This document shows, piece after piece, positions 12,984 to 51,619 of a DNA stretch of 64,000 nt. This DNA is from a virus. Taxonomy: Duplodnaviria > Heunggongvirae > Uroviricota > Caudoviricetes. The stretch is from the IMG/VR virus record IMGVR_UViG_2778261375_000003. One strand, given 5' to 3'. The notes beneath the pieces are model-generated. The model ran no database searches. It saw only the letters and a list, made by a program, of their open reading frames with translations, and was not told the DNA's origin. Both the position numbers and the translations under genes were made by a program. Numbering within the stretch: the first letter of the stretch is position 1; every line of letters begins with the position of its first letter.

Positions 12984-13681
12984 AGATTGCTTTAGTTTTT
13001 CGCTCTGGTGGTGACTATAACGCTTCCGATGTGCAGTGGCTGGTTAATCAACTGCCAAAAGGCTATGAAATTATTTGCCTGACAGACCTGAAGCGTTTAC
13101 ATGTACCTGGCGTCAAAGTTGTCCCATTGATCAACCAGTGGCAAAAGTGCCGTGGCTGGTGGGCGAAAATCGAGTTGTTCCGACCGGATATAACCGATGA
13201 TCTGTTCTATCTGGATTTGGACACGGTTATTGCCGGTGATATACGCCCAATCCTAGAGCATCCACCAACCAGCTTCACCATGCTTAGGGATTTTTACCAT
13301 CCACAATATCGTGGCAGCGGTGCCCTGTGGATACCAAATAGTGTTAAAGCGCATATCTGGAGTTCATTCTGGCAAGATCCGGAAGGTTGGATTTCTCGTT
13401 GTGTCACTACTGAGTGCTGGGGTGATCAGGGGTTCTTACGGAAGGTTATGGGCGATGATACACCAGCATTTCAGGATCTGTATCCAGGATGGTTTGTAAG
13501 TTACAAGGCCGATGTTGTGGAACCTGGTTCAAAATATGCGAGCGCGCGTTACTCCAGGGGGAATGGGGCATTACCAAAAGACTGCCGAATAATCTTTTTC
13601 CACGGCAAACCGCGACCTCGCGAAGTGTCAGAGGATTGGCTTCCCCTTGTCAGCTCATTTTTTGAGCGAGAATCAGAATAA
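12980..13681 (+). CDS. putative GT-A-like glycosyltransferase (233 aa)
   Basis: YLDLDTVI (DxD-like) motif in a Rossmann-like N-terminal half; overlaps the ppp stop. Confidence 0.4.
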
Positions 13682-13682
13682 T

Positions 13683-13699
13683 ATTGCTCTAATAATTCC
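13683..13699 (+). promoter_or_regulatory. C1 operator-like site
   Basis: ATTGCTCTAATAATTCC, identical to the consensus over the first 13 positions. Confidence 0.6.
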
Positions 13700-13731
13700 A
13701 TATTTTTAAAGCGTGATGTACACTCATCACG

Positions 13732-13748
13732 TTTTTTATTAGAGCAAT
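13732..13748 (-). promoter_or_regulatory. C1 operator-like site, inverted relative to 13683-13699
   Basis: ttttttattagagcaat is the reverse complement of ATTGCTCTAATAAAAAA; the two operators flank the palindrome cgtgatgtacactcatcacg. Confidence 0.6.
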
Positions 13749-13982
13749 CTACAAGGTGCACTATGTGGCCATTCCGACGGAAATATCACTACTGGCTGAT
13801 CGCCTTTGTTACGCCGACCGGCGGTATCAGGCATGTCATCACCAGGTATCGCAACAAGAGACTCACCTTAGCCAGAATTTTACAGGCTGCCATAGGTGAG
13901 GGACTGGATACAAATTGCGTAGTCCTTCCTCCTTCATACTTAGGAAAAATGACCGAAGCACAAGCTAATACGGAACTTTGAA

Positions 13983-15245
13983 ATGAGCACTTCAGCACAA
14001 AACCAATCAATCGAAAATGTATCTATCCCTGACGTCCTGAATGCCGGTATCCCGGCCATTATCCAGAACATCCGGGCCGCGCAACGCCGCGTTAGTTGTG
14101 ATGACCTCACAGCGCGTTTTTTTGATAATGCGGTTCAGTCAGCGGAGATGCTTCACGCACAGCTTATTGATGTTTATAACGCAGAAGCTGATAGCCATAA
14201 CTCCCTGGTAGATGCAGCTGAAAATATGCAGTTGGATCTCGGTCTGAAGGGTAAAGAAATTGAAGAGCTTCAGCTGCAAATTGAACATTTGAAACGCCAG
14301 CAACAGGACGCGATCGACGATGCGACGCATGACGCCAACCAGCGTGCTGATAATGCCGAACGTATAAGCATTGAGCTGGAAACAAAACTCAATGAAATGA
14401 CCGCGATGGTTGAACTGCGGAACTCACAGATTTCAACGCTAAAATCTCAATATAAAGAGATCATGAAACTTGATCCTTTTAACCTTGAGAAACGCTATAA
14501 CAAAGCTAAAAGCGAGCGACAGGAACTGCGTAAGCAGGTCGCCGACCTTAACCAACAGCTCAAAAAAACTATTAAAGATGCAAGCGAAGCGCGCGTGGCA
14601 TTTGCTAATAAAAAAGCAGAGGTTACCGCGCTGGTTAATGAGAATGCCAAATTTGCGACGCTCAAGAAGGAAATGTATGGCATTACTGAGCGCCGTTTCC
14701 CTGCAAGAAAACTTCATCCGACGTTAGGGCAAATCTCCTTCTTCCCGCGCCTCCTGGCTTATGGGATCTCATCGCCTAAAGAGTTCAATAACGAGCGTCC
14801 TTATATCGTTTCTAAGCTGGACTTTGCTTATCAGTTCTGCTGCGACATGGGCTATGCCATTGATATCCGGATCAACGAATGGTTGATGCCAAACTTCCAG
14901 CCGTTGGCCATTTTCCGCGAGTTCCAGCCGGAAGGTTGGGTAGAGTTCTTCCATGAATTGATCTGTAAAGAGATGGAAAGCCGCCGCCCGGAACTGGTCC
15001 GTCGAGTTGAGTGGGCGCAAGAGGTTATGTTGGCAGAGGCAGAGCTGCCGTTCGAACCGGAATTCATTGATGATCTGGCAACTAAAGGGCTGCATACCCT
15101 GTTTGATGTGGTTACCCGCCGTCATGAGCAGTTGGTTGTCGAATTGGGTTTAGAGGAAACAGCGGCAAGAAGACTTCTCGATGTTTGCTATGCACGTAGC
15201 GATGCATGGGAAAAAGAGAACGGCGGCACTATTTACGTTCGCTGA
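13983..15245 (+). CDS. hypothetical coiled-coil protein (420 aa)
   Basis: long heptad-rich central region (KEIEELQLQIEHLKRQQQD...), downstream of the operator pair. Confidence 0.55.
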   Translation: MSTSAQNQSIENVSIPDVLNAGIPAIIQNIRAAQRRVSCDDLTARFFDNAVQSAEMLHAQLIDVYNAEADSHNSLVDAAENMQLDLGLKGKEIEELQLQIEHLKRQQQDAIDDATHDANQRADNAERISIELETKLNEMTAMVELRNSQISTLKSQYKEIMKLDPFNLEKRYNKAKSERQELRKQVADLNQQLKKTIKDASEARVAFANKKAEVTALVNENAKFATLKKEMYGITERRFPARKLHPTLGQISFFPRLLAYGISSPKEFNNERPYIVSKLDFAYQFCCDMGYAIDIRINEWLMPNFQPLAIFREFQPEGWVEFFHELICKEMESRRPELVRRVEWAQEVMLAEAELPFEPEFIDDLATKGLHTLFDVVTRRHEQLVVELGLEETAARRLLDVCYARSDAWEKENGGTIYVR

Positions 15246-15317: not shown

Positions 15318-15824
15318 TTGAGTATTTTCAATAAACACGCACACCAGGAACGTCCGTATATCGTCATAGTTGATATTGATGGAACAATATCAGAGGCAAC
15401 TGAAGACAGACTGCATTTGCTTCCGCCACCAGGTAAAGGTGCATTAACAAAGGACTGGAACGAGTTTAATCTCGCCTGTGACACCGATACTCCCATCACT
15501 CCAGTTATTGATATGGTGCGCCAGTTATTTAACGTTTACACGGTCTGGTTTGTAACCGGGCGCTGTGAGATCGCAAGGGATAAAACACGAGCCTGGCTGC
15601 GGAAGTACGTAACAAACGGGGCTGAGCCTTTGCTATCTATGCGTCCTGCCACCGATGACAGAAATGACGGCCCAGCAAAGATTGATCTCCTTAAGAAAAT
15701 TGGTCTAAGTAAAATCGCGTTCGCGCTGGAAGATAAGATTGAAGTGGCGCGTGTTTTCAGGAGGAACGGCGTGCTTACGTTAATGGTCAGGGAGTATGAA
15801 AATGCGCTTCTTCATCAACAATGA
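15318..15824 (+). CDS. HAD-superfamily phosphatase-like protein (168 aa)
   Basis: N-terminal VIVDIDGTI matches HAD motif I (DxDGT). Confidence 0.55.
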   Translation: MSIFNKHAHQERPYIVIVDIDGTISEATEDRLHLLPPPGKGALTKDWNEFNLACDTDTPITPVIDMVRQLFNVYTVWFVTGRCEIARDKTRAWLRKYVTNGAEPLLSMRPATDDRNDGPAKIDLLKKIGLSKIAFALEDKIEVARVFRRNGVLTLMVREYENALLHQQ

Positions 15825-15840
15825 TTGCTCTAATAAATCT
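15824..15840 (+). promoter_or_regulatory. C1 operator-like site
   Basis: ATTGCTCTAATAAATCT, one mismatch to consensus, overlapping the stop codon of the preceding gene. Confidence 0.65.
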
Positions 15841-16018
15841 TGATTTTTAAAACGGAGAAAGTGAAAATAAAAACATGCCGCAAGGCGCGGCATGTATCCA
15901 ATCAATCACAGGAGCTGAAAATATGAACACGGCATTCAAAATCATTATGGCCGCGATCTATTTCTGGCTGTTCTCTATCACTTTTGGCGGCATCGTCGCA
16001 CATGGGTAAGGGGGATGC

Positions 16019-16747
16019 ATGAAAGGCGAAGTGAAAGAGCGCGGCATGATTTTCAACGATGAGATGGTCCGGGCCATCCTCGAAGGAAGGAAAACGCAGA
16101 CGCGGCGGATAATGAAAAATCAGCCTGCGGAAGTTGGTCCAGAAGCACCAGTGATGGTTAGAAAAATTGGTGCAGGTTTTCAGTGGTACGGGGCTGATGG
16201 TGTAAGCAGTGTTTTCAATTGCCCATTTGGTATCGTCGGCGATCGAATTTGGGTTCGTGAAACATGGGCGATATTAGGCAATGAGGATGGTTGCAGTGTG
16301 GACTGGAACGACAACCTTTGTCGTGGCGATGAGAAGAACGCAGCAAGGATTTATCGGGCCAGTTGCGAGCAAAAACCTGGTGATTACGGCTTATGGTCGA
16401 TACCCGATGATGCCGACTGGAAACCTCACACTGTGAATGAAAAGTTTGATGGTGGGTGGCGTCCATCAATTCACATGCCGCGATGGGCATCACGCATTCT
16501 GTTGGAAATTACCAACGTGCGCGTTGAACGGTTGAACGATATCAGCGAATGCGATGCAAGGGCTGAGGGCGTTCCGCCTGCTGGAAGTTTGCTTCCTGAT
16601 CACCCGGGAACATTCCTTACTCCCAAGGGGGATTTCGCAATGGCCAAGGTTGCGTTCCAGCGCCTGTGGGAATCCATCTATGGTGAAGAAAGCTGGAACG
16701 CTAATCCCTGGGTGTGGGTAATCGAGTTTAAGCGCATTCAGGAATAA
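16019..16747 (+). CDS. ASCH/PUA-like domain protein (242 aa)
   Basis: N-terminal MIFNDEMVRAILEGRKTQTRR motif typical of ASCH-type phage proteins; pattern-based. Confidence 0.4.
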   Translation: MKGEVKERGMIFNDEMVRAILEGRKTQTRRIMKNQPAEVGPEAPVMVRKIGAGFQWYGADGVSSVFNCPFGIVGDRIWVRETWAILGNEDGCSVDWNDNLCRGDEKNAARIYRASCEQKPGDYGLWSIPDDADWKPHTVNEKFDGGWRPSIHMPRWASRILLEITNVRVERLNDISECDARAEGVPPAGSLLPDHPGTFLTPKGDFAMAKVAFQRLWESIYGEESWNANPWVWVIEFKRIQE

Positions 16748-16750
16748 ACC

Positions 16751-17629
16751 GTGAGTATGCATCAAGTCGTCAGCTTTTCAGGTGGACGAACATCGGCTTA
16801 TCTCGTTCATCTGATGGAAGCACAGCGAAAAGCTGGCGCTAGCGTCCATTTCATTTTTATGGATACCGGCTGTGAACATCCTCTGACGTATCGCTTTATT
16901 CGTGAGGTTGTGAAGTTCTGGAACGTACCGCTAACGGTGTTGCAGGTCGATATAAATCCAGAACTTGGGCAGCCAAATGGTTATACGGAATGGGAACCAA
17001 AGGATATTCAGACGCGAATGCCGGTGCTTAAACCGTTTATGGACATGGTTAAAAAGTACGGTACGCCATACATCGGCGGCGCGTTCTGTACCGACAGGCT
17101 AAAACTCACCCCTTTCACGAAATATTGCGATGACCATTTTGGGCGAGGGAATTACATCACATGGCTCGGTATTCGTGCGGACGAACCCCGTAGGCTGAAA
17201 CCGAAACCGGGCGTCCGGTATCTTGCCGAACTGTCAGATTTTGATAAGTCGGATGTTATCCGGTGGTGGCGAAAACAACCTTTTGATTTGCAAATCCCGG
17301 AGCACCTCGGGAACTGTGTTTTTTGCATCAAAAAGTCAACGCAAAAGCTGGGGCTTGCATGTAAAGACGAACCAGGTCTGATGCGGGTTTTTAATGAACT
17401 GGTTACAGGCAAACACGTCAGGGATGGTCATCGCAGAACAGGTAAAGACGTTATGTACCGTGGCCACCTGACGCTTGACGGGATTGCCAGAATGTATGCC
17501 GACAGTGACTACAGAAATTTGTATCAGGCGATGGTGCTGGCCAAGCGGTTTGATACTGGTTCGTGTTCCGAATCATGTGAAATCTGGGGTGACCAATTGG
17601 AGTTGAAATTCGAAGAGGTAGTGGAATGA
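16751..17629 (+). CDS. PAPS-reductase-like (phosphoadenosine phosphosulfate reductase family) protein
   Basis: N-terminal VSFSGGRTSAYLVHL PP-loop-like motif; 292 aa. Confidence 0.6.
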   Translation: MSMHQVVSFSGGRTSAYLVHLMEAQRKAGASVHFIFMDTGCEHPLTYRFIREVVKFWNVPLTVLQVDINPELGQPNGYTEWEPKDIQTRMPVLKPFMDMVKKYGTPYIGGAFCTDRLKLTPFTKYCDDHFGRGNYITWLGIRADEPRRLKPKPGVRYLAELSDFDKSDVIRWWRKQPFDLQIPEHLGNCVFCIKKSTQKLGLACKDEPGLMRVFNELVTGKHVRDGHRRTGKDVMYRGHLTLDGIARMYADSDYRNLYQAMVLAKRFDTGSCSESCEIWGDQLELKFEEVVE

Positions 17630-17829
17630 CAATCGTAAAAACCCATACCGGTACCGTGATCACCAAAGATGGCCCGAAGGTAAAAAAACTGCACCAAACA
17701 GAGCGGATGTGGGTCGTTGGCAAAAACGAGTTTTACCACAAAGAAACTGGACGCCGCCATTTTGCAGAAAATACGCGCCGCCGACTGCTGTTAGACACCA
17801 TCAAGCCTATCGAGGTGAAGCATGTTTAA
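17626..17829 (+). CDS. hypothetical small protein (67 aa)
   Basis: start overlaps the preceding stop; basic protein. Confidence 0.45.
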   Translation: MTIVKTHTGTVITKDGPKVKKLHQTERMWVVGKNEFYHKETGRRHFAENTRRRLLLDTIKPIEVKHV

Positions 17830-18061
17830 ACAGAACGAAAAAGCTATCGCTCAAATTGCTGATTATATCCCGCGTGCGTGCCGGGGTATGCAGTTGCAGG
17901 AAGCCAAAGCGCGCCTGGAGAAAAAAATTGCGCTCTATATTGATGACGGCTGTGATTCCGCCGTTCTTAACGCGGCGTTCGCACCAGCTCTTAACTGTCA
18001 CACTCGGGAGTCTTTTTTTTCGTGCATCGCAGCGCAACTCCGCCAAGGAGGCAACCAGTGA
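17822..18061 (+). CDS. hypothetical small protein (79 aa) ending in ...AAQLRQGGNQ
   Basis: C-terminal motif and the AGGAGGCAACCAGTGAG junction are shared with the 18690-19352 gene. Confidence 0.45.
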   Translation: MFKQNEKAIAQIADYIPRACRGMQLQEAKARLEKKIALYIDDGCDSAVLNAAFAPALNCHTRESFFSCIAAQLRQGGNQ

Positions 18062-18702
18062 GTAACCGTTTTTACATGATGTGCTTGCGTGAAACTGTGG
18101 GTAATAACGCCTCATTCCATTGCCATAACGGCAATGGTTACAGTTCTGATATCGATCGAGCACATGTTTACACGCAGGAAGAAGCCCAAAAAGCCTGGAA
18201 TTGTGGTCGAGATATCGATCAGCCTGTTTGCGCTGATAGCGTGGATGCAATGGCTGTGTGGCACGTTGATTGCCAGTACATCCCTACAGAAAGCCTGATT
18301 GAGTCAGATTGCACTGAGTATGTGGCCTACAAAAAAGGTAGCTGGAACGGCAACGATGTTTACTGGCTTCAACACGGTGGATTGCCAACAGATGACTTCA
18401 GTAAAGCGACCATCTTTAGCGTCGTCAACAAAAACGAACCAGGAATAGTTTGGTTGCCATTTTCCATTGCTGATGCAGCAAAGCGCCGGACGTTCAATAT
18501 CAATAACTTTAACCGCAGAACAATGGTTCAGGGCGCAGGTTTGGTCATGCCTGACTGGTTGAAAGAGCAGAACAGAAGAAAGAAGTCGCGAAGCGGGAAG
18601 GTGCGTTGGAATTGTCCGCATTGCGGAAAAATAACCTGGCAGTACAGCCCATATGATTTTGAAGGCTGTAGTGATTACAACTGTGAAGGATGGCGAGAAT
18701 GA
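18058..18702 (+). CDS. hypothetical Cys-rich protein (about 214 aa)
   Basis: GTG start inside the conserved junction AGGAGGCAACCAGTGAG (the track ORF 18022 is a likely over-extension); C-terminal CPHCGK zinc-ribbon-like motif. Confidence 0.5.
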   Translation: MSNRFYMMCLRETVGNNASFHCHNGNGYSSDIDRAHVYTQEEAQKAWNCGRDIDQPVCADSVDAMAVWHVDCQYIPTESLIESDCTEYVAYKKGSWNGNDVYWLQHGGLPTDDFSKATIFSVVNKNEPGIVWLPFSIADAAKRRTFNINNFNRRTMVQGAGLVMPDWLKEQNRRKKSRSGKVRWNCPHCGKITWQYSPYDFEGCSDYNCEGWRE

Positions 18703-19352
18703 CAATTGACTATCAGGTACTGCGTGAGGCGGCAGAAAAGGCAACACCAGACGAATGGGTCGCATTTATTTCGACGGATACTGGTACTTATGCGGTGCAC
18801 ACGCCCGGTGATGAACGATGTGAAGACGTTATCAAATGGACCGGCTTTGATGGACAGAAAAATGCAGAGAACAACGCTCGTCATGTTGCCGCGTTCAACC
18901 CAAAGGTTGCACTGGAGCTGCTTGGTGAAATTAAGTGCTTGGAGGACACAAATATTGATGCCACGTGCCGAATTTCAGAGCTTGAGACTAATCTCGCTGC
19001 GCTGGTGGCAGAGAACGCTGGGCTGAAACACGCAATGGCCGTAACTCTTGAGCATGTGTCGGTCACGGATGCAGGGCAGGCCGGAGTTGCTGCAATGATT
19101 ATCAACGATGCCCTGCACCACAGCGAAACTCCAGCTACCGATGCTTTCCTGTCTGAAGTGCGGGCGCAGGGGGTGGATGCTGCTATAGAAGCTGCAAAAA
19201 ATCTGGTGGCCCAAGAATATGAGTATAAGGATTTCAAAGCGGCGCAGAGTGATTGCTGTATGCACCCTGGTTCAGACCTGGTAGGGAAGGTTGAAATGAC
19301 TGAGTGGTTAGTTGACTTTGCTGCCCAGCTTCGCAAAGGAGGCAACCAGTGA
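18690..19352 (+). CDS. ead/Ea22-like family protein (220 aa)
   Basis: N-terminal YQVLREAAEKATPDEW motif; C-terminus ...AAQLRKGGNQ. Confidence 0.5.
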   Translation: MARMTIDYQVLREAAEKATPDEWVAFISTDTGTYAVHTPGDERCEDVIKWTGFDGQKNAENNARHVAAFNPKVALELLGEIKCLEDTNIDATCRISELETNLAALVAENAGLKHAMAVTLEHVSVTDAGQAGVAAMIINDALHHSETPATDAFLSEVRAQGVDAAIEAAKNLVAQEYEYKDFKAAQSDCCMHPGSDLVGKVEMTEWLVDFAAQLRKGGNQ

Positions 19353-20101
19353 GCGAAATTAATTACCAGGCACTGCGTGAGGCGGCGGAACGTGCAATTC
19401 CAGCAATGGAACGCCTGTTAATGTTGCCAGCTGATGATGATTTGTTAAGTGAACAGGAACTTAAAGATTACGGTGTGGATATTGATGCGCTCAACGCCTT
19501 CAAATTTCTGACCGGACCAGAAACCGTGCTGGCGCTGCTGGATGAACGGGAAAGAAACCAGCAATACATAAAACGCCGCGATCAGGAGAACGAGGATATT
19601 GCGCTAACGGTAGGGAAGCTGAGAGTTGAGCTTGAGGAAGTAAAACAACACGCTGAAGAATTATCCGAAACCAAGGCTGTTCGTAACCAATGGCGGCCAG
19701 ATATTTGCCCAATAACCGGACGTGCATTTTTCATGTGGATTGAGCATCCAACATTGGGAAATGTGCCGACATATGGTGGCCCATTAGATAGTTACACCAT
19801 TCCAACAAAGGACGGTGACGGTGAGTTTTCATGTGAGCGTTACGATCATGATTTTGGCGGTTGGGTAGAAAGCGAATGTCTTGGGTTATATCTGATTGAT
19901 GATAGAGAACAATGCAGGGTCTACGAACTGGAGGAACGCGTTAAGGAACTGGATGCTCGGGAAATATCGCTCCCGGAACGTAGCAGCATGCTTCATCGAA
20001 CAGATTTTCACGATGATTACCAAACGGTAATGGCATACAAAGTTTCTGAAGTCATCGCTGCAATCCGCGCCGCAGGCATTCGCATCAAAGGAGGTGAGTA
20101 A
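19349..20101 (+). CDS. ead/Ea22-like family protein (250 aa)
   Basis: N-terminal YQALREAAERAIP and ETVLALLDERERN motifs; GTG start in the conserved junction. Confidence 0.5.
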   Translation: MSEINYQALREAAERAIPAMERLLMLPADDDLLSEQELKDYGVDIDALNAFKFLTGPETVLALLDERERNQQYIKRRDQENEDIALTVGKLRVELEEVKQHAEELSETKAVRNQWRPDICPITGRAFFMWIEHPTLGNVPTYGGPLDSYTIPTKDGDGEFSCERYDHDFGGWVESECLGLYLIDDREQCRVYELEERVKELDAREISLPERSSMLHRTDFHDDYQTVMAYKVSEVIAAIRAAGIRIKGGE

Positions 20102-20446
20102 TGCGTGTGGCATGTATCGGCTTGTTACCGTACCCGACTCGTTTTTGGGCTTCTGCGCTAATTGCAAAGCCGTATGTCCTGATGGCTGACAACATCATCC
20201 CGGCACCAAAGCGCCGCCATACCGGTATTGCAGCGGCACGACGAGCAGCAAAGAGACGCAGGAGAGCAAAGCGATGAAAAACCGTAAGGCAAAACGACTT
20301 TTTTTACAGCGACCTGTGCGTGTGGTGGAGCTGGTTATTAGCAACCATAAGATAGCGGTACTCCATCCATTTGGTCAGGTGGCTTTTGCCGCAAAGCGTA
20401 AGCCTACTGCGTCACAGAACAGGCGGAAGAAAGGGTACGCTGTAAG

Positions 20447-21139
20447 ATGAAAAACCGTAAAGCAAAGATTCTGTTAGTTCGTAGAAACGCTCCTGGCGTC
20501 TGGCAGTGGGTGAGACTCAGCAACCGACGGATGGGGTTGATGAAATATTACGGGATGATGGATTGTGGTTTTTGCAAAAAGCCCAGCGCGGCGCAAAACC
20601 GCTGGAAAAACCACTTGCGCACTAAAGGAGTAACACACCGCGAACTCTGTCAGATTGCGTATAAGTTCCTTAAGCGCAACGGGTTCAAGGTTTGTTTTCA
20701 TGACCGCTTTATAGCTGTAACCAGTACCGGAGAACAGCCAGATGCTATGGGATTCAGAAATTCAGCATCATGCCTGATAGAGGCGAAGTGTTCTCGTGCT
20801 GACTTGTTGGCAGATAGAAAAAAGCGTTTTCGTAAAAATCCATCTCTTGGAATGGGCGACTGGCGATTCTTTATTAGTGAGCCGGGAATTATTTCAGTTG
20901 AGGATTTACCACCTGGCTGGGGATTACTTCACGTTGTTAACGGAAGAGTACGGAAAGTACATGGGTGGCCCAAGGGTAATTGCTGTTGGGGTAATCCTGA
21001 CGATAAGCCATTTACTGGAAATAAGCAGGTTGAATGCGATTACATGTTATCTGCATTAAGGCGCATGGAGTTGAGAGGGCACCTTAATGAAATATATGAC
21101 GGTGTAATTGTTAATAAGAAAGAAGGAAACGCAGCATGA
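20447..21139 (+). CDS. hypothetical protein (230 aa)
   Basis: ORF with a duplicated 5' end: atgaaaaaccgtaaRgcaaa occurs at 20274 and 20447. Confidence 0.5.
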   Translation: MKNRKAKILLVRRNAPGVWQWVRLSNRRMGLMKYYGMMDCGFCKKPSAAQNRWKNHLRTKGVTHRELCQIAYKFLKRNGFKVCFHDRFIAVTSTGEQPDAMGFRNSASCLIEAKCSRADLLADRKKRFRKNPSLGMGDWRFFISEPGIISVEDLPPGWGLLHVVNGRVRKVHGWPKGNCCWGNPDDKPFTGNKQVECDYMLSALRRMELRGHLNEIYDGVIVNKKEGNAA

Positions 21140-21522
21140 TCACTATTACCAAAGAACGCCTGCTGACAATCCAGCAGTGGCGCGAAACATACGGACCTGG
21201 TAGCAACGTTGTACTGCCAGCAGAAGAAGCGGAAGAACTGGCACGAATTGCTCTGGCATCGCTGGAAGCAAAACCAATAGGTGCATTCCACATTGCAGAA
21301 CAGCAAGTTGACGGCACAAGTGACTACATCAAGGATGGGGAGTGGCCTATTGATAATGGAATTATTGAGGTCTACGCCGCTCCCCCCGTTCCAGTAGTAC
21401 CGGAAGAAAAACCAATGCCTAATCCTCTTAGCATGTACGCGGTTGATGCTGTTGCCGCTATTGCAGAGGTAAGAGGCTGGAATGCCTGCCGCGCGGCTAT
21501 GCTTCATGGGAAAGGAAAGTGA
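21136..21522 (+). CDS. hypothetical protein (128 aa), paralogue of the N-terminus of the 21955-23235 product
   Basis: shared motifs LARIALASLEA, VYAAPPVPVVP, AAMLHG. Confidence 0.5.
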   Translation: MITITKERLLTIQQWRETYGPGSNVVLPAEEAEELARIALASLEAKPIGAFHIAEQQVDGTSDYIKDGEWPIDNGIIEVYAAPPVPVVPEEKPMPNPLSMYAVDAVAAIAEVRGWNACRAAMLHGKGK

Positions 21523-21523
21523 T

Positions 21524-21745
21524 ATGGCTAACTCATTACTTGAAACCTGCAACAACTGGCAGATTCAGAGGGCGGAGATTTTATCTCGCAATCCAGATAT
21601 GGCAATGACAATTGATAATCTGGACACGCTAATTGAACGGACCGTGCGTTCTGCAATTGATATAGCACATCGAGTGGATTGGGATTTCAGAGAAGCGGAG
21701 CGGCTTGCTAAAGAGCAGGAGAAAGCAGCGGGTAAAGGAGACTGA
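21524..21745 (+). CDS. hypothetical protein (73 aa)
   Basis: internal ATG of track ORF 21482-21745 chosen as start. Confidence 0.4.
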   Translation: MANSLLETCNNWQIQRAEILSRNPDMAMTIDNLDTLIERTVRSAIDIAHRVDWDFREAERLAKEQEKAAGKGD

Positions 21746-21746
21746 T

Positions 21747-21944
21747 ATGGATAAAAACACCACTGCTTACTGGAATCTGTCACTTGATACCGAATGCCCA
21801 AAATGCGGTCACAATTTCGATCTGCTTTGTGATCCAGATTTCTGGGAATTTTCTGGAGCAAAACAGGCATGTGAAGAAATAAAAGGTTACGAAACATGCT
21901 GTCCAGAATGTAACCATGAATTTAAAACAGATTTTGTGTATTGA
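21747..21944 (+). CDS. zinc-ribbon protein (65 aa)
   Basis: CPKCGH...CCPECNH double CxxC motif. Confidence 0.45.
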   Translation: MDKNTTAYWNLSLDTECPKCGHNFDLLCDPDFWEFSGAKQACEEIKGYETCCPECNHEFKTDFVY

Positions 21945-21954
21945 GGCATAACGA

Positions 21955-23235
21955 ATGACCACTTTTACTAAAGAACAATTAATAGAGATGATTAAGCGCA
22001 ATATAACGGTTATGGATCGTTATCCTGATTTAGTAACTGCACAAATGGATCTGGAAGTATACAAAATTGCGCTGGCATCACTGGAAGCAGAACCAGTTGC
22101 TTATATTTTCAAACATCCGGCCGGGAAATTATTCTGGGCTTTAACGGATGAAAGCAATAAAGAGCAAGCGGACGTTATTCCTGTTTATGCTGCCGCGCCT
22201 GCGTCGGTTGTGCCGGATAATGCATCAGAGCCTCTTGCTTATGCTTACAAAGAGCTTACGCCTGAGATTATGCGCAACCATTTAGCTGTATTCGAGCGAT
22301 ATGGAATAGCCCCAAACGATAGCTCTACCACAATTCAGGCACTGCGAATCGCGCTGGATGGTATAGAGCGGAGCGACGCCATGCTTCAGTCCGGAAACTT
22401 TCGGGAAAACAAGAATTCGTCAACCAATAATTTTCGGGAAATCGCGGAAACGTCAACCAACTATCCGGTAATTCCTAGTGAGGTGTTGTCCGCAATCCTG
22501 AAGGTTGCCAAGATTCGTGCCGATTTCGATGATTTTGACGGTGACAGGCGAGGTATCGGTGATTGTCTGGATGAGGCTGAGCAAGAGCTTATCGTTACCA
22601 TTAACAAATATGCCAGTCAGTTGGCAGCAGAACCGATAGCGACTAATGACGTTCGAGAGCAAACAGCCGTTCCGCCAGTTCCTGTAATACAGGCTGATGT
22701 CGCGCAGGCAATTGAAAAACTCAAACGGAAATTAGTGGAATGCAATCGCTATAACTACTGCGCAGATGCAGTTAAGGGCGTTGAGTATGCCTGCCACGCT
22801 GCCATGCTTCAGGGTAGCCAACCTGTAAGCCAAACTTACAAGTTTCCAGTTAATACACCTTGCCAGGATGCGCCAGCCCATATCTGGCTGCAAACAGCTG
22901 GAGTATGGCCAGAAGATGGCGAGTTAAGCGAATTAACATGGTGCAGCCACAATCAGCACCATGATGACACGCTATATGTTCGAGCTGACTTGGTAAATGG
23001 CAATTCTCCGGTAACTCCGGATGGTTGGATAAGCTGTAGTGAGCGAATGCCGAATACCAAAACAGCCGTTCTTGTTGCCGTGGAGTTTGACAGGAAAGGT
23101 GACTGGCGAATGAAATGGGCTACTTACATCCCGGGGCATCCTGACGCTAATGATGGGTGGATAATTCCTGGTGCGTCGTGGAAACCGTCACACTGGATGC
23201 CGCTACCAGAACCGCCGCAGGAGGTGAATCAATGA
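21955..23235 (+). CDS. hypothetical protein (426 aa) with repeated paralogous domain
   Basis: contains YKIALASLEAEP, VYAAAPASVVP, AAMLQG motifs shared with the 21136 product. Confidence 0.55.
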   Translation: MTTFTKEQLIEMIKRNITVMDRYPDLVTAQMDLEVYKIALASLEAEPVAYIFKHPAGKLFWALTDESNKEQADVIPVYAAAPASVVPDNASEPLAYAYKELTPEIMRNHLAVFERYGIAPNDSSTTIQALRIALDGIERSDAMLQSGNFRENKNSSTNNFREIAETSTNYPVIPSEVLSAILKVAKIRADFDDFDGDRRGIGDCLDEAEQELIVTINKYASQLAAEPIATNDVREQTAVPPVPVIQADVAQAIEKLKRKLVECNRYNYCADAVKGVEYACHAAMLQGSQPVSQTYKFPVNTPCQDAPAHIWLQTAGVWPEDGELSELTWCSHNQHHDDTLYVRADLVNGNSPVTPDGWISCSERMPNTKTAVLVAVEFDRKGDWRMKWATYIPGHPDANDGWIIPGASWKPSHWMPLPEPPQEVNQ

Positions 23236-23299
23236 GCTGGCCTGAAGCATTCACCACGGTAGGAATTGTGATGGCGGCAGCACTGGGTTTGTATTCAAT

Positions 23300-23551
23300 T
23301 TGTCGCTGGTGGTAACGATGGGAAAAATAACTTTTGTAGTCGAATTTGAGGATGGTAAAGAGCCACCTGTTAGCGCCAATCTTGATGTTGCTGGTGGCAG
23401 GCTTGTTTCGGTTCTATTTGGTGACTACCGAGATGACTTCTTCCAACCAGAAGAAGTTGATGTAGTGCGAGAGGCATTAAACGAGTTAAGTGTTGATAAC
23501 GATGATGCTCATGCGGAAATCATCCAAAAAATGGAACTGCTAACTCACTAA
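23300..23551 (+). CDS. hypothetical small acidic protein (83 aa)
   Basis: ORF with upstream purine-rich tract. Confidence 0.45.
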   Translation: MSLVVTMGKITFVVEFEDGKEPPVSANLDVAGGRLVSVLFGDYRDDFFQPEEVDVVREALNELSVDNDDAHAEIIQKMELLTH

Positions 23552-23599
23552 ATTATCAATTATGGTGCTATCACCTACGACACCGAGAGAAAATTTATA

Positions 23600-23722
23600 A
23601 TGTCAAAAGTAAATGTTTTGATTTTTTCAGCAATTGTTGGCTTTGGTTTTACTGCCGGAGTGCAGATTTATATTACGTGGGAAAAAATCATCAACTACGC
23701 ATGGAGTTGTTTTATTAAGTGA
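23600..23722 (+). CDS. small hydrophobic peptide (40 aa)
   Basis: ATG at 23600 to TGA at 23720-23722, one predicted TM helix (MSKVNVLIFSAIVGFGFTAGVQIYITW...). Confidence 0.3.
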   Translation: MSKVNVLIFSAIVGFGFTAGVQIYITWEKIINYAWSCFIK

Positions 23723-23729
23723 GGTAAGT

Positions 23730-24023
23730 ATGTGGAGAGGTAATAGTCATGGCAAAAGCCAGATGATACTTACCGAATATAAGCTAGACCACAAAACCAA
23801 TAAATCACGTTCAGTATATTTGCTCCGGCACAATAGCCGCGTAAGAAATACCGTGCTGGAACAAAATCTGACAGTTGAAATGGATAATTACGGGGGATTC
23901 AAGCCAACAATTTCACTTGATGATTTTCCTCGTGGTTTAAGCGAAAGAGAAGCAATGCTGAAATTAGCAGAATGGCTACAAAGATTAAGCATTGCTATTG
24001 AAGATAACTGGTCTGAACCTTAA
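23730..24023 (+). CDS. hypothetical protein (97 aa)
   Basis: ATG at 23730 preceded by gaggtaag RBS-like sequence; track ORF 23634 probably over-extended. Confidence 0.45.
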   Translation: MWRGNSHGKSQMILTEYKLDHKTNKSRSVYLLRHNSRVRNTVLEQNLTVEMDNYGGFKPTISLDDFPRGLSEREAMLKLAEWLQRLSIAIEDNWSEP

Positions 24024-24029
24024 ATTTAT

Positions 24030-24404
24030 ATGATGACACTAAAACATTTTCTTGACCGCCCATTATGGGCGGCAGCCGCAGGCTATGACTTTAATTATAT
24101 GGATTGCATGTCTTATACCGCCAATGCATACGACTATTCCTTCAGTCTGCTGCTTAATTCTTTAAGAATATTGCCGCAAACAGAAGTTGGAGAGATTCAT
24201 TTATGGCTATTGGGCTTTATCGCGGCTGGAGTTGGTATTGCTGTATGGCCTTTTATTTTCTGGCTGGTGGCTGTTGTAGTGTGGTTTAAGTGCAAGACGT
24301 ACCGGAGAAAGTATTTCTTAGGTGATGGAATGACTGATATTGCCAAAATGAACATTGAAAAATGGACTAAGGAATGTGAAAAGAAATGGCGCAAAAAGAA
24401 ATGA
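24030..24404 (+). CDS. putative membrane protein (124 aa)
   Basis: hydrophobic segment LWLLGFIAAGVGIAVWPFIFWLVAVVVWF. Confidence 0.5.
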   Translation: MMTLKHFLDRPLWAAAAGYDFNYMDCMSYTANAYDYSFSLLLNSLRILPQTEVGEIHLWLLGFIAAGVGIAVWPFIFWLVAVVVWFKCKTYRRKYFLGDGMTDIAKMNIEKWTKECEKKWRKKK

Positions 24405-25036
24405 CCAGAATCACTGAAGAGCGTATATTAGAGATTATTTCCCGTATCGAAATGTATGGTCACGGTGCTGGATATACGGCAGATGAAGTATTGGAAATAG
24501 CCCAGCAGATGCTGGCCTTGAGACAAAAAGAGCAACATGAAAGTAATACGTGTAGATTGAATTTTGAGCAGTGGCTGGAACAGCAACGCGGAAAAATCGA
24601 TGTGGACTGCGGTTGTGTGTCCACTGAAACATTCATGCACTGGCTGTGGGTAGCTTACGAGGCTGGCAACTATCCGGATATTCCGGATAGTTCGGTGCCA
24701 GCGCCAGGAAAGGGCGTCACCGGTGAACGTATCCGCATTAAGCCGCATGTTTATCGCGAACTGGTTAACCGTCTCCACGATACAGCGATCAAGTGTGCTG
24801 GCACCCAGCAATTACGAGAAAGAATTAGCCGTGTTTTGGGCGACGTTATTACACCAGATCATCATAAACAAGCCGAGAAAAGTGACCTGGAAAGGTGTCA
24901 CCTTGAGGCGGCATTAAACATTAAGCCGGGGCATACGCTTGGCATTATTGATGCACTATTGGTTCATAAGATGGCCAGGGCTTTATTGCCGCTGGTGGCT
25001 GAAAAGCATGAGGTGGACCATGCCAACGAAAGCTGA
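24386..25036 (+). CDS. hypothetical protein (216 aa)
   Basis: ORF overlapping neighbour stop/start. Confidence 0.5.
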   Translation: MAQKEMTRITEERILEIISRIEMYGHGAGYTADEVLEIAQQMLALRQKEQHESNTCRLNFEQWLEQQRGKIDVDCGCVSTETFMHWLWVAYEAGNYPDIPDSSVPAPGKGVTGERIRIKPHVYRELVNRLHDTAIKCAGTQQLRERISRVLGDVITPDHHKQAEKSDLERCHLEAALNIKPGHTLGIIDALLVHKMARALLPLVAEKHEVDHANES

Positions 25037-30185: not shown

Positions 30186-31669
30186 TGGCCAGAAGTTGCG
30201 TAACGGATCCACGTTGGCGCGAGCTGGTGGCGCTATATCGTTATGACTGGATTGCTGCCGCTGATGTTTTGTTCGGCAAAACACCTACCTGGCAGCAGGA
30301 TCTGATTATTGAGTCTGTGCAGGAACAGGGTAGCAAGACATCTGTTTCGTCTGGTCACGGTACCGGGAAATCAGACATGACTTCTATCATGATCATGTTG
30401 TTCATAATCATGTATCCAGGTGCCCGTGCCATTATCGTTGCGAACAAAATTCAGCAGGTAATGACCGGTATATTCAAGTACATCAAGATAAACTGGGCTA
30501 CTGCCACCAGCCGTTTCCCATGGCTTGCTGATTATTTTGTTCTGACAGAAACCGCTTTCTATGAGATTACTGGTAAAGGTGTATGGACTGTAGTACCGAA
30601 GGGCTTTCGTCTGGGAAGTGAAGAAGCTCTCGCCGGTGAACACGCAGATCATCTTCTGTATATTATCGATGAAGCCTCCGGTGTCAGTGATAGAGCTTTC
30701 GGTATCATCACCGGTGCTCTTACCGGACAGGATAACCGCATCTTATTGCTGTCACAGCCTACACGCCCAAGCGGCTATTTCTACGATACACACCATAAAC
30801 TGGCCAAGCGTCCTGGTAACCCTGATGGCGTTTATACGGCGATCACGCTTAACAGTGAGGAATCACCGTTGGTAACGCCAGCATTTATCAAAATGAAGCT
30901 GGCGGAGTACGGCGGGCGTGATAACCCTATGTACATGATTAAGGTACGCGGCCTATTCCCTAAATCACAGGATGGCTTCCTTCTTGGACGTGATGAGGTT
31001 GAACGTGCAACGCGGCGGAAAGTCAAGATTGCCAAAGGATGGGGCTGGCTTGCATGTGTGGACGTTGCTGGTGGTACGGGACGGGATAAGTCCGTTATCA
31101 ATATCATGATGGTGTCCGGCCAGCGAAATAAACGCCGTGTAATCAACTATCGAATGCTGGAATACACAGACGTTACAGAAACGCAGCTTGCCGCCAAAAT
31201 TTTCGCAGAATGTAATCCTGAGCGATTCCCCAATATCACCATAGCGATAGACGGCGATGGCCTGGGTAAAGCAACGGCGGATCTGATGTACGAGTATTAT
31301 GGTATTACCGTACAGCGTATACGCTGGGGTAAAAAGATGCATAGCCGTGAAGATAAGAGCCTGTACTTTGATAAACGTGCTTATGCCAATGTTCAAGCCG
31401 CAGAGGCCGTAAAATCTGGTCGTATGAGACTGGATAAGGGTAATGAAACTATTGAGGAAGCGTCGAAAATCCCTGTAGGGATTAACTCCGCAGGTCAATG
31501 GAAGGTGATGAGTAAGGAGGATATGAAGAAAAAACTCAACCTGCACTCACCAGACCATTGGGATACATATTGTTTCGCTATGCTGGCGGATTATGTTCCC
31601 CAGGATGAAGTGCTTAGCGTCGAAGACGAAGCGCAGGTTGATGAAGCTCTGGCATGGCTTAATGAATGA
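30185..31669 (+). CDS. pacB: pacase (terminase) large subunit PacB
   Basis: 494 aa with Walker A-like GHGTGKS and terminase nuclease-like C-terminal part. Confidence 0.8.
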
Positions 31670-31672
31670 ATA

Positions 31673-31689
31673 TTTGCTCTAATAAATTG
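31673..31689 (+). promoter_or_regulatory. C1 operator-like site at the pacB 3' end
   Basis: tTTGCTCTAATAAATTg, consensus core intact. Confidence 0.6.
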
Positions 31690-31819
31690 TGTTTTTTAGC
31701 TACCGATGTTACATTGAACCTGACCTCTTGCGCCTTGTGGCATTTTCGGTTTATGCTTATCAGGCACCTCATTAAAACGGGTGCCGGGATTGGCCTCCCG
31801 CTTAAGTCTAAGGCGATAC

Positions 31820-31842
31820 AGACGCCGCTCGCGTCTTTTTTT
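31820..31842 (+). terminator. Rho-independent terminator-like hairpin in the leader of the antirepressor-like module
   Basis: stem agacgc/gcgtct with 5-nt loop, followed by 7 T. Confidence 0.5.
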
Positions 31843-32007
31843 GTATCGGCGTACACGCACACCTCTACAATGGTGGGCTGTATGGGGCTACCTTCGGGTA
31901 GGCTGGTTACCTTGGACGCCAGTAAGGCCAACTCCGTACAGTCCACCGCCAGCAAGATTGGTCTCTTCTGCGGTGGTTACATACCAACGTCTAAGGAGGC
32001 TGCCAAT

Positions 32008-32229
32008 ATGGCTACTATCCCTACCCCAACTCATCCTGAATTTATCTGGCGCTTTTACTCCTGCCAAAAACGTCACTATCACTTCGTTATTGCACCAACA
32101 GAAGATGAGGCCCGCTCTCAGCTTCCTGACGCCCCATGTATTTTCTCTGCCCGTTTTTCCACTGATTCACGCAATTCTCTCAGTTACTGGTGCCTCCCTG
32201 TTAACGCTTCTGCTCAGGAGGGACTATGA
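32008..32229 (+). CDS. small protein (73 aa) translationally coupled to the antirepressor-like gene (Icd-like position)
   Basis: ATG at 32008 preceded by AAGGAGG; stop overlaps the next start (ATGA); the longer track ORF 31666-32229 is a likely over-extension. Confidence 0.5.
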   Translation: MATIPTPTHPEFIWRFYSCQKRHYHFVIAPTEDEARSQLPDAPCIFSARFSTDSRNSLSYWCLPVNASAQEGL

Positions 32230-33344
32230 GAACGTCATTAGTCACCCGTGAAGAGATGATCGAGGCAATTGAACAGCACACTGCCTGTATCAGTACCAGG
32301 GATATACCAGGCGTTATTGCCAACTACTTCATGATCACCAAACAACTTTACCGGAGAAAGGACAAGAACGCGGTTCACCGTATCCTGTTGTCTGATATCC
32401 GCGAATACCTGCTCGAACAGGGTCATCTGAATTACGCAACCGTCGCAGCCGAAGCACGCAAGGAGGCACACAGAATGAAAGCAACTAACGTTAAATCAGA
32501 AAAAATTCATGCACCTTCAGTTCAGGAATCGGAGCTGGTGGTTGTTCAGAATCAGTCTGATGAAATTCCCGTTCTGGAATGGCAGGGAGTGCGTGTAGTG
32601 ACAACCGAGACTCTTGCTAGAGGGTATGGGACAGAAACAATCCGTATTCGCCAAAATCATCATGAGAACAAAGTACGCTTTGTTGAAGGGAAGCACTTTT
32701 TCAAAGTTGAAGGAGAATCATTGCGCGAGTTGAAGCACAGAGTAGCTTTAAACTACTCTGTAAAAATTGCTCGCAATGTTCGCTCACTCACCCTCTGGAC
32801 AGAACGCGGCGCAGCCCGCCACGCTAAAATGCTCGAAACCGATCAGGCATGGGCATTCTTTGAAAAACTGGAAGACAGCTACTTCCGACAAAAAGAACAG
32901 CAACCGATCGCAATCCCCCAGACGCTTCCTGAAGCCCTACGCCTGGCTGCCGAACTGGCTGAACAAAAGCAACTTCTGGAACAGAAAGCCCACCAGCTAA
33001 ATCAGCAGCTGGTGGCCGCCGCTCCTAAAGTCGATTTTGCCGACCGGGTATCAGTAGCTAAAGGGATCCTGATTGGGAATTTTGCAAAGGTTGTTGGACT
33101 TAAGCAAAACGCGCTGTTTGTCTGGTTACGGGAGAACGGCATCCTGATAGCGTCCGGTGGACGTAAAAATGTGCCGTTCCAGCAGTACATCAACGCGGGG
33201 TATTTCACGGTGAAAGAAGTGGTGCTGGATGATGAAGATGGCTACCAGATACGGTTGACGCCTCAATTAACGGGTAAAGGCCAGCAGTGGTTGACGCGTA
33301 AACTGCTCGATGCTGGCTTGTTAAAACCGGTGGCAGCTGAATAA
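32226..33344 (+). CDS. antirepressor-like protein (Rha/ORF6N-type N-terminal domain)
   Basis: 372 aa; IPVLEWQGVRVVTTETLARGYG...VRFVEGKHFFKVEGESL resembles phage antirepressor N-domains; in-frame internal Met near residue 84 would give a shorter isoform. Confidence 0.55.
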   Translation: MRTSLVTREEMIEAIEQHTACISTRDIPGVIANYFMITKQLYRRKDKNAVHRILLSDIREYLLEQGHLNYATVAAEARKEAHRMKATNVKSEKIHAPSVQESELVVVQNQSDEIPVLEWQGVRVVTTETLARGYGTETIRIRQNHHENKVRFVEGKHFFKVEGESLRELKHRVALNYSVKIARNVRSLTLWTERGAARHAKMLETDQAWAFFEKLEDSYFRQKEQQPIAIPQTLPEALRLAAELAEQKQLLEQKAHQLNQQLVAAAPKVDFADRVSVAKGILIGNFAKVVGLKQNALFVWLRENGILIASGGRKNVPFQQYINAGYFTVKEVVLDDEDGYQIRLTPQLTGKGQQWLTRKLLDAGLLKPVAAE

Positions 33345-33376: not shown

Positions 33377-34228
33377 TTATTGCGCGCTTTCGGGGTTGTC
33401 GTTTACTGGCTGCCCCTTCTTGGTTTTACGGCTGCGCGTAACTGATGCGGCTGACTTAACCTTTTTCTCTTCGCGAGTGATGGCAATTTGTTTTTTTACA
33501 TTTTCAATATCTGCCAGGCGATATATTTTTGCTTGCGGCCAGCGGTCGCAGATGATCGGTTCTATGGAGTCATAAAGGCTAAATTTTGCTTTTTCGAATT
33601 CACCGTTGATGATAATTCCATCACGGAGAGTTTCATCGCAGATAAACACGCCACACAGTGGCACATGGTAACTAACTGATTTACCATCATTGTAGTTAGG
33701 GCTACTGGAAATGTAGTGGACGCGCAGCATTGTTTCGCTAAAGCCGTGTACGCGCATACGGAATTTTTCATCCTCCGGGTACTGCCTCATTAGCTCTTTT
33801 GTTGCTTCCAGGTTCTCTATGTATTTCGCACTGTGCTCATTGATCCCCGCGCTTTTTTGGATGCGAATGTCCTTATCAATCAGATGAATAATGCGGCCAG
33901 CGGTCATGTTGACGCTGTTCACAGCTTCTGTCTGATAAGTTGTAACCTTGCGCACACCGCGAAGGATGTTAGGCACTGGATATAAAATAGTCTTTGGGAT
34001 ATTGAGGTCTGGGTACTGTTCCAGTTCCCGCGCCATTAAAGTCCATTTATCAATTTCAGCCTGAATGCTGTCAGTTTCTTTGAACGGTAGAACGACAACC
34101 GGGCGTACAGGACGACCGTCGCTGGCTGTATCAACGTGTTGGGCGCGTGCAACGGCTTTTTTTAGAAAGAGATCCCTGAAGCTGACGAACTCCTGGTACA
34201 GTTGTTCGCCGTAGACATAATTTATCAT
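33377..34228 (-). CDS. c1: C1 repressor of lysis
   Basis: 283 aa beginning MINYVYGEQLYQEF; upstream coi and operator cluster; many cognate 17-bp operators in the window. Confidence 0.85.
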   Translation of the reverse strand: MINYVYGEQLYQEFVSFRDLFLKKAVARAQHVDTASDGRPVRPVVVLPFKETDSIQAEIDKWTLMARELEQYPDLNIPKTILYPVPNILRGVRKVTTYQTEAVNSVNMTAGRIIHLIDKDIRIQKSAGINEHSAKYIENLEATKELMRQYPEDEKFRMRVHGFSETMLRVHYISSSPNYNDGKSVSYHVPLCGVFICDETLRDGIIINGEFEKAKFSLYDSIEPIICDRWPQAKIYRLADIENVKKQIAITREEKKVKSAASVTRSRKTKKGQPVNDNPESAQ

Positions 34229-36767: not shown

Positions 36768-36791
36768 AAAAAAGCCTGGCAAGGAGCCAGG
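36764..36791 (-). terminator. hairpin with A/T run between cra and ref
   Basis: gcctggc-aagga-gccaggc stem-loop preceded by 8 A on the plus strand (= T-run on minus strand). Confidence 0.4.
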
Positions 36792-36899
36792 CTGCACAAA
36801 AGAGCGGGTTTGTATTCCGCATCCAATCAATCAAGAAGGAGTATAGCACACAGGTACTGAAGTGAAAAAATGTGATTCGCGATAAACAAAATATCTACC

Positions 36900-36929: not shown

Positions 36930-36982
36930 GCAGTTTTTGTCAACTACGAAGACGTGCCATTACTTAACTCCTTGACATCATA

Positions 36983-37008
36983 GGCGGCCATTAGGCCGCC
37001 TTTTTTTT
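36983..37008 (+). terminator. Rho-independent terminator-like hairpin immediately upstream of the ref start codon
   Basis: ggcggcc-atta-ggccgcc followed by 8 T, ending 7 nt before the ref ATG. Confidence 0.5.
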
Positions 37009-37736: not shown

Positions 37737-38405
37737 GTGGCTTTTCTTTTTTGTAGGGGCGCTATGGATAAGAAAATATGCGTTGTTTCGATGAGCGTCG
37801 GCAAACCGGCGTCAATGACTGCTGCATGGATCAATAACGAGCTGATAATGGCTGAGCGGACCAGCTACCCTGAACGCCGCCGCGACATGGAACTCCAGCT
37901 GCTGCGCGAATTGCGAGAAAAAGAGGAAAAGGGTTTTATCGTGCTGGTGGAAGAGGAAAACAGCTTTATTACTGGTCGAGTTGGCCAGCGTGTAAGGTTG
38001 CGCGATCCCTTCATGAACGGCAGGCCGGTACTAATTGAGGCAATGCAGATTTATAAGGAGCTGGAACGCCAGAAAGCAATCAAGTTACCGCGCAAGGAAT
38101 CCGGCAAATACATCCTCCACCAAAGCATCTTCGATTCCGAACACGATAAAAAAGGCGATGAATTTTTCAACATCAATTGGAGCGAAATAACGACAGAGCA
38201 TGTTCTGACGTTACTCTGTTGCTTTGCGACGGAATACAACAACGTTGCCAGCGCCGACTACATCAGGGCAATGGCTTGTGAAGTGGATAGTCGTGATGAC
38301 TCATCGCTGATAGCGTCATATATAAACATCATCAAGAAAACTCAAATTATGGGATGCGCTAGAGTTCCTCAAGGAATACTCACCGGAAAGAATAATATTC
38401 TATAA
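37737..38405 (+). CDS. mat: Mat-like protein (by position)
   Basis: ORF downstream of ref; the track start overlaps a hairpin with T-run, so the true start may be the ATG at 37764; name from P1 synteny. Confidence 0.5.
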   Translation: MAFLFCRGAMDKKICVVSMSVGKPASMTAAWINNELIMAERTSYPERRRDMELQLLRELREKEEKGFIVLVEEENSFITGRVGQRVRLRDPFMNGRPVLIEAMQIYKELERQKAIKLPRKESGKYILHQSIFDSEHDKKGDEFFNINWSEITTEHVLTLLCCFATEYNNVASADYIRAMACEVDSRDDSSLIASYINIIKKTQIMGCARVPQGILTGKNNIL

Positions 38406-38469
38406 CCTACGAAGGTTATTTGTTACTTTCTGCGTAAACCTACAACTAACCTTCCTAAGTTAAGGAAGG
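38404..38469. terminator. bidirectional terminator zone between convergent mat and the AT-rich gene
   Basis: hairpins aacctacgaaggtt and ccttcct-aagtta-aggaagg with T-rich flanks. Confidence 0.45.
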
Positions 38470-38502
38470 TATTTATCATGAAGTGTAGACATAAGCGTAT
38501 TA

Positions 38503-39543: not shown

Positions 39544-39566
39544 TGTATGTCGATCCTGTTGTTTAA

Positions 39567-39584
39567 GCCCATATCATATGGGCT
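39567..39584. terminator. palindromic hairpin between lxc and the AT-rich gene
   Basis: gcccatat-c-atatgggc perfect palindrome. Confidence 0.35.
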
Positions 39585-39595
39585 TTAAATGATTA

Positions 39596-51602: not shown

Positions 51603-51619
51603 ATTCTTACCTACCAAAA

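Follow-up and report, generated by a model that had tools for sequence, protein, structure and literature searches.

A previously annotated pair of inverted C1 operators before pmgR of a P1/P7-type phage encloses a putative terminator hairpin and promoter

The short gap between the genes pmgQ and pmgR of a P1/P7-type phage carries two inverted C1 operators and, between them, an inverted repeat which, once transcribed, would form a hairpin with a T tract directly behind it. We consider it reasonably probable that these signals make up one module of terminator, promoter and double operator, in which C1 would shut the pmgR-pmgS promoter in the lysogen. Judged by sequence, the operator pair is the Op86a/Op86b pair already annotated before pmgR in P1 and P7; it has stood in the GenBank records of both phages for about two decades, and by itself it matters little beyond P1 biology. 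Our addition is a modest one, namely a comparative argument that the central repeat appears to be a hairpin or terminator at the RNA level, interleaved with the promoter of the essential head-tail joining gene pmgR. The hairpin with its T tract, the comparison of six lineages, the hexamer in the hairpin loop and the expression step across the junction are new; the comparative points on the hairpin and the -10 are minor refinements.

The stretch of DNA analysed, which we call the window, is 64 kb long. Across the locus of the element, its nucleotide identity is 99.6% to phage P7 and 99.0% to phage P1, and the coordinates of all relevant features are collected in Table 1. The earlier note, made from the letters of the window, had placed the element in a short gap between a glycosyltransferase-like gene and a small ORF that precedes a 420-aa coiled-coil gene. 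This gene context was borne out: the upstream gene is pmgQ, for which the glycosyltransferase label is the RefSeq annotation, the two downstream genes are pmgR and pmgS, and the gap between pmgQ and pmgR measures 81 bp and is filled by the operator/hairpin element. pmgQ is the final gene of the upstream transcription unit, which runs from pmgL/pmgN to pmgQ. PmgR is essential in P1, and its deletion leaves heads and tails unjoined (PMC9024508). Pfam gave no match for PmgQ, PmgR or, in the copy searched, C1. The window also encodes the repressor itself, and its c1 is syntenic with P1 93232-94800. Four segments of the window (16713-24655, 31667-32994, 38284-39596 and 51386-53253) have no megablast match to the P1 record AF234172; presumably they are variable or cargo regions of a P1/P7-like element.

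Table 1. Features of the pmgQ-pmgR junction and associated genes, in window coordinates.
Feature	Position	Strand	Details
pmgQ / hdmD	12980..13681	+	ORF list, 233 aa; the P1 and P7 records have it at the homologous position
C1 operator Op86a = OpmgRa (P1) = Op(sht[a]) (P7)	13683..13699	+	ATTGCTCTAATAATTCC; 14/17 to consensus
Sigma-70 promoter PpmgR, predicted in AF234172	13684..13712	+	-35 TTGCTC 13684-13689, 17 bp, -10 TAAAGC 13707-13712
Alternative candidate pmgR promoter	13697..13724	+	-35-like TCCATA 13697-13702, 16-bp spacer, -10-like TACACT 13719-13724 (hairpin loop)
Terminator-like hairpin	13708..13737	+	Core arms 13712-13718 / 13725-13731; loop TACACT; T6 13732-13737
C1 operator Op86b = OpmgRb (P1) = Op(sht[b]) (P7)	13732..13748	-	ATTGCTCTAATAAAAAA; 14/17 to consensus
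Shine-Dalgarno-like AAGGTG	13753..13758	+	Direct sequence reading; 4 nt upstream of the pmgR ATG
pmgR / shtA	13763..13981	+	72-aa ORF; annotated in P1/P7; deletion phenotype PMC9024508
pmgS / shtB	13983..15245	+	420-aa coiled-coil ORF, co-transcribed with pmgR; annotated in P1/P7
c1 (repressor of these operators)	33377..34228	-	280/283 residues identical to C1 of the P1 c1.100 record

Both operator copies have the coordinates and the sequences that had been claimed for them, and their opposite orientation was confirmed. Measured against the C1 operator consensus, a 17-bp asymmetric sequence ATTGCTCTAATAAATTT (quoted in PMC8546580), the two share a perfect 13-bp core, ATTGCTCTAATAA, and their mismatches are confined to the last four bases; the load of three mismatches at the 3' end is no greater than that of the annotated operators Olpa and Oref. 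Overall, the window contains 14 matches to the consensus with at most three mismatches, compared with 0.29 expected from shuffles. In a repeat search, the 13-nt operator arms came out 100% complementary, separated by 40 nt. The complete 17-mers are separated by 32 bp and span 66 bp from outer edge to outer edge.

Comparison with the known P1 operator map, which had been proposed as a check, was run, and both sites coincide base for base with the annotated OpmgRa and OpmgRb. In AF234172 they are entered as protein_bind features for 'phage repressor C1' and called 'monovalent'. The comment on OpmgRa reads 'former Op86a; controls expression of pmgR and pmgS', and that on OpmgRb 'former Op86b'. 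The P7 record AF503408 likewise enters the two sites as protein_bind features. Within the element, the window differs from P1 by a single base, G for A at 13711. A full-text literature search for 'Op86' returned nothing relevant to P1. The idea of a composite C1 regulatory element serving the small ORF and the 420-aa gene is supported by the operator annotation in P1 and P7 and the presence of c1 in the window. Both sites combine a consensus match, a cognate c1 in the same genome, positional homology and purifying selection relative to the flanks. A divalent C1 operator of the Op72ab type was also considered and ruled out: the sites lie 32 bp apart without overlap, and the record says 'monovalent'.

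To follow the element through related genomes, loci were collected via the PmgS protein, so that the sampling carries no bias toward operators. Scans of metagenome and viral collections with a PmgS alignment gave almost only P1-clade loci, which are useful for polymorphism and not for divergence; a search of genome contigs with PmgS gave two near-identical loci. The P1-clade set comprised 122 ungapped copies with 63 unique sequences. Among these 63, positions 1-11 of Op86a and all 17 positions of Op86b are invariant, and the last codons of pmgQ vary greatly. The six bases directly after Op86b (13749-13754) are hypervariable, with up to 9 or more variants per column.

The operator pair is kept in six lineages, the P1 clade and five more distant ones, with PmgS identity down to 52-53%. 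The five are Cronobacter phage JK004, whose locus has about 71% nucleotide identity to the window, together with L183 (PmgS about 70%); a group of Salmonella plasmids, L006-L008 and L280-L282 (about 69%); L067 (69%); L278 (64%); and L273-L276 (52-53%), the most distant. In all six lineages the inverted orientation is kept and the outer-to-outer span of the operators is exactly 66 bp. Relatives with about 21% PmgS identity (Citrobacter, Pantoea and E. coli plasmids) were dropped from the comparison, as they have another gene context and no C1-type operators. Among these, L011 and L012 (on Citrobacter and Pantoea plasmids) carry the annotation 'RNA polymerase alpha C-terminal domain-containing', and a relative of 27% identity gave a weak HHH_5 match; PmgS, labelled 'putative morphogenetic', may have a DNA-binding helix-hairpin-helix end. 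A separate observation concerns L283 (27% PmgS identity), where a perfect 15-bp inverted pair, AAGATACTAATTTAT-N17-ATAAATTAGTATCTT, lies at 2190-2250 before a pmgR-like gene. There is no hairpin between its arms; it brackets the region in the same manner but differs from Op86 in operator sequence and spacing.

The sequence enclosed by the two operators, 13712-13731, had been described as a 20-bp palindrome. The description stands for its 7-bp arms, CGTGATG and CATCACG, but not for the 6-nt centre TACACT, which is non-palindromic, so that the 20 bp are palindromic only in part. An optional A·U/G·U extension of the stem, in which 13708-13711 would pair with 13732-13735, lengthens the arms to 11 nt (AAAGCGTGATG/CATCACGTTTT). 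The + strand RNA folds at -13.4 kcal/mol (z = -6.8), and the 7-bp core alone at -8.5 kcal/mol. On the coding strand, the hairpin lies 31 nt past the pmgQ stop codon. A U tract comes directly after the stable stem-loop, on the same strand as the upstream gene, which is the form of a terminator. The T6 tract is formed on the + strand by positions 12-17 of Op86b, and it exists because Op86b has AAA at operator positions 15-17. This AAA is unique among the 15 P1 operators from the record, almost all others being T-rich there.

A strict scan of both strands of the 64 kb, which required a perfect stem of 7 bp or more, 3-8 nt in the loop and six or more T among the eight bases that follow, returned 5 distinct sites, the Op86 hairpin among them, compared with 0.03 expected from shuffles. 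The built-in terminator scan did not call the Op86 hairpin, we think because the stem was extended into the T run. Rfam gave no family match to the hairpin. The P1 record AF234172 contains no terminator features at all, so its silence on the Op86 hairpin is uninformative. Three further strict sites lie at 36773-36793 (-), 36982-37001 (+) and 49893-49910 (-), two of which flank the region just after the operator Oref at 36900. Elsewhere, between the operator OpmgT/Op88 (15824-15840) and the start of pmgT, there is a perfect hairpin at 15874-15894, CATGCCGC-AAGG-GCGGCATG, with AAAATAAAAA before it; on the minus strand this reads as a T run. From its sequence the hairpin looks like a minus-strand terminator; the neighbouring genes are all on the plus strand, and according to the P1 record the stretch resembles sequence found downstream of plasmid hsd loci.

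Between lineages, the stem changes on both sides. The P1-type arms are CGTGATG/CATCACG, and in the Salmonella type and L067 they read CATGGTG/CACCATG, with pairs 2 and 5 changed on both sides (two of the seven core pairs). JK004, L183 and L282 have CATGGTG/CGCCATG with one U·G pair. In L278, the 3' arm CATGCCG pairs with CGGCATG, a 5' arm that lies three bases further upstream, and the stem reaches -16.5 kcal/mol. The arms of L273-L276, GTGTGGTG/CGCCACAT, include two G·U pairs at -16 to -19 kcal/mol. All three arm mismatches between lineages are thus of the G·U type, so the constraint is meaningful for RNA only. The T6 tract is kept in five of the six lineages, a count that covers few independent lineages; L273-L276 have CTTGATT in its place and retain the hairpin. 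Within the P1 clade, we also looked for an excess of pair-preserving changes among the low-frequency stem variants and found none, as four transitions preserve pairing and four disrupt it (manual tally). Overall, the comparison favours a transcript-level hairpin of terminator form as the role of the central repeat, rather than the site of a second protein.

A larger fold is also available to this region. A read-through transcript could fold the operator cores of 13680-13752 into a 13-bp outer stem that surrounds the inner hairpin (-26.9 kcal/mol, z = -10). The operators are invariant, so this outer stem shows no variation. In such a model, the long and nearly continuous duplex of operator cores could be a processing site.

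Published transcript data from P1vir cover the junction. At 10 min in the WT host, the RNA-seq log fold changes were 7.4, 7.0, 6.9 and 7.0 for pmgO, pmgP, ppp and pmgQ, versus 9.0 and 10.0 for pmgR and pmgS; in a dksA host at the same time, they were 6.6, 6.5, 6.1 and 6.2 versus 9.0 and 9.1 (PMC8201110 table S1). At 10 min, pmgR and pmgS stand 2 to 3 log units above pmgQ in both hosts, as measured in P1vir and not in the exact genome of the window. This early rise across the gap indicates that a promoter is active there. At 30 min, the values were 11.66 for pmgQ, 10.81 for pmgR and 11.70 for pmgS, all at gene level (PMC8201110); the drop from pmgQ to pmgR is small and pmgS is back up, so efficient termination is not demonstrated by these data. 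CRISPRi roadblocks placed in pmgO to pmgQ did not reduce plating, though pmgR is essential. Their harmlessness fits a separate pmgR promoter, a weak argument because the knock-down of pmgR itself scored as non-essential.

Two promoter candidates for pmgR lie within the element. The -10 of the PpmgR predicted in the record is TAAAAC in P1, where the promoter scores 7/12, and TAAAGC in the window, where it scores 6/12. The alternative, with its -10-like hexamer in the hairpin loop, scores 7/12 in the window and in P1, 8/12 in the Salmonella type and L067, and 9/12 in JK004, L278 and L273-L275; in each non-P1 lineage, it is the best hexamer pair within the element. The loop hexamer is always -10-like, with T1, A2 and T6 invariant: the P1 clade has TACACT, four lineages have TATCAT, and the most distant lineage has TATTAT. 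Within the P1 clade both candidates are poor by score, and in the promoter scan of the window neither passed the threshold (scores 6-7/12); the scan called the loop-centred site independently in JK004, L278 and L273. A late promoter dependent on Lpa was ruled out at this position. The late-promoter consensus was derived from 11 annotated P1 late promoters and consists of a 9-bp -22 box AAGTGACTT, 4 nt and then the -10; where that box would lie relative to TACACT, the nine nucleotides read TTAAAGCGT, which on manual reading is no match to the -22 box.

Were the promoter the one predicted in the P1 record, with its -35 TTGCTC in Op86a and its -10 TAAAAC/TAAAGC, transcription would start at about 13720 inside the hairpin and the loop hexamer would be a by-product. 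This promoter is annotated in AF234172, its TTGCTC within an operator is also the -35 of the annotated P1ban, its score in P1 equals that of the loop candidate, and transcripts begun at about 13720 would also be without the 5' arm of the hairpin. However, even in the record it carries the label 'predicted'. The final T is missing from its -10 in every case, and the hexamer degrades to TGAAGC in JK004, TGCGGC in L278 and TTAAGG in L275 (4-5/12), whereas three positions of the competing hexamer are kept everywhere. On this comparison, the functional -10 is probably not the one that the P1 record predicts, and we regard a pmgR promoter built as in the record as rather unlikely, if still worth keeping in mind. 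For the loop hexamer being the real pmgR -10, we see an about even chance.

The module that we favour, in which terminator, promoter and double operator are combined, would work as follows. Transcripts that reach pmgQ would start upstream, at the C1-controlled PpmgN and at the late promoter LPpmgL. They would contain both arms and the U tract, and for them the stem-loop with T6 would act as a Rho-independent terminator. The pmgR promoter would be interleaved with this hairpin, with its -10 in the loop and its start at about 13731. Transcripts that start at either candidate promoter would lack the 5' arm and would thus escape termination. In the lysogen, two monomer-binding, inverted C1 operators would keep the pmgR-pmgS promoter shut: Op86a would overlap the -35 of the loop promoter by three bases, Op86b would cover about +1 to +17, and C1 would thereby bracket the RNA polymerase site from both sides, as a double lock. 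A more pointed version holds that the 2004 annotation mis-assigned the pmgR promoter and that the upstream operon's terminator carries the real -10 in its loop. A single 66-bp module would in that case stop incoming transcription and restart it in a terminator-immune form, locked by two C1 monomers, and the T tract would double as the degenerate end of Op86b. We offer this version tentatively, as a possibility to which we give somewhat less than even credence.

The constant geometry of the pair also invites an explanation by looping or cooperativity. C1 bound at Op86a and at Op86b would touch, possibly together with Lxc, and bend the 32 bp of DNA rich in A and T tracts between them; the hairpin would be incidental and the spacing would reflect the geometry of a protein bridge. 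The exact 66-bp distance and the inverted orientation kept in six lineages would fit this explanation, as would the A and T runs in the spacer and the inverted operator-like pair before the pmgR-like gene of the distant relative with 27% PmgS identity. C1-mediated looping has reportedly been seen at the P1 c1 operators, which also counts in its favour. However, the centre-to-centre distance of 49 bp, or about 4.7 helical turns, is very short for a protein-mediated loop, the P1 record calls both operators 'monovalent', and no more than 17 bp separate the pair in the distant relative. Natural 1-bp insertions in the spacer also speak against a strict bridge, as 4 of 126 P1-clade sequences are 302 and not 301 nt long, with variants that have T7 or an extra A. 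Nor is looping needed for the fixed span, because promoter geometry (-35, 16 bp, -10, +1) alone already sets the 66 bp, and looping would leave the covarying stem and T6 unexplained. We find looping improbable.

Least credible of all, and in our view very improbable, is the second regulator that the earlier note had imagined on the central palindrome, a dimer bound to CGTGATG-N6-CATCACG over the promoter: a 7-bp inverted repeat with a 6-bp centre does lie at the core of the promoter region, and symmetric changes in both arms between lineages would fit the palindromic site of a co-evolving dimeric protein, but the arms keep complementarity only and not their sequence (2/7 positions differ in relatives of about 71% identity, the register is shifted in L278 and the arms differ again in L273), mismatches of the G·U type have no meaning for the recognition of duplex DNA, a terminator accounts for the T6 that adjoins the stem whereas a protein site does not, there is no known candidate for the regulator, and matches to the palindrome with at most three mismatches number 5 in the 64 kb versus 3.3 expected, only one of them exact, which is no excess of further copies beyond chance.

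The combined terminator, promoter and double-operator module would be a compact natural case in which signals of these three kinds overlap. The comparative argument on the hairpin and the -10 is useful for the engineering of P1 or P1-like phage-plasmids and for the annotation of their transcription units. Compared with OpmgRa/OpmgRb of P1 and Op(sht[a])/Op(sht[b]) of P7, the element of the window has the same position, sequence and flanking genes, without any difference of substance. The P1 and P7 GenBank records annotate two operators and a predicted promoter, and they neither mark a terminator nor assign the central inverted repeat a role. With the intrinsic terminators of enterobacteria and their phages, the Op86 hairpin shares a stem of 7-11 bp, a 6-nt loop and a T6 directly after it. 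It differs from typical ones in that the stem is short, with 4/7 pairs G-C and a core of -8.5 kcal/mol, in that it overlaps a promoter and an operator, and in that one lineage is without the T tract. The P1 divalent operator Obanab (former Op72a/b) also places two inverted C1 sites at one promoter. Its 17-mers, however, are offset by 11 bp, so that they overlap and make up a single incomplete palindrome, whereas between the Op86 sites there are 32 bp with the promoter core and the hairpin. At Plpa/Olpa, P2c4/Oc4 and Pdmt/Odmt of P1, the operator overlaps the -35 by 1-3 nt, which is the same geometry as that of Op86a and the candidate -35. At P2ssb/Ossb and PkilA/OrepL, also of P1, the operator abuts or overlaps the -10, to which Op86b, lying downstream of the -10, is loosely comparable. 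The P1 promoters with a single operator have one position or the other, whereas Op86 combines both at one promoter.
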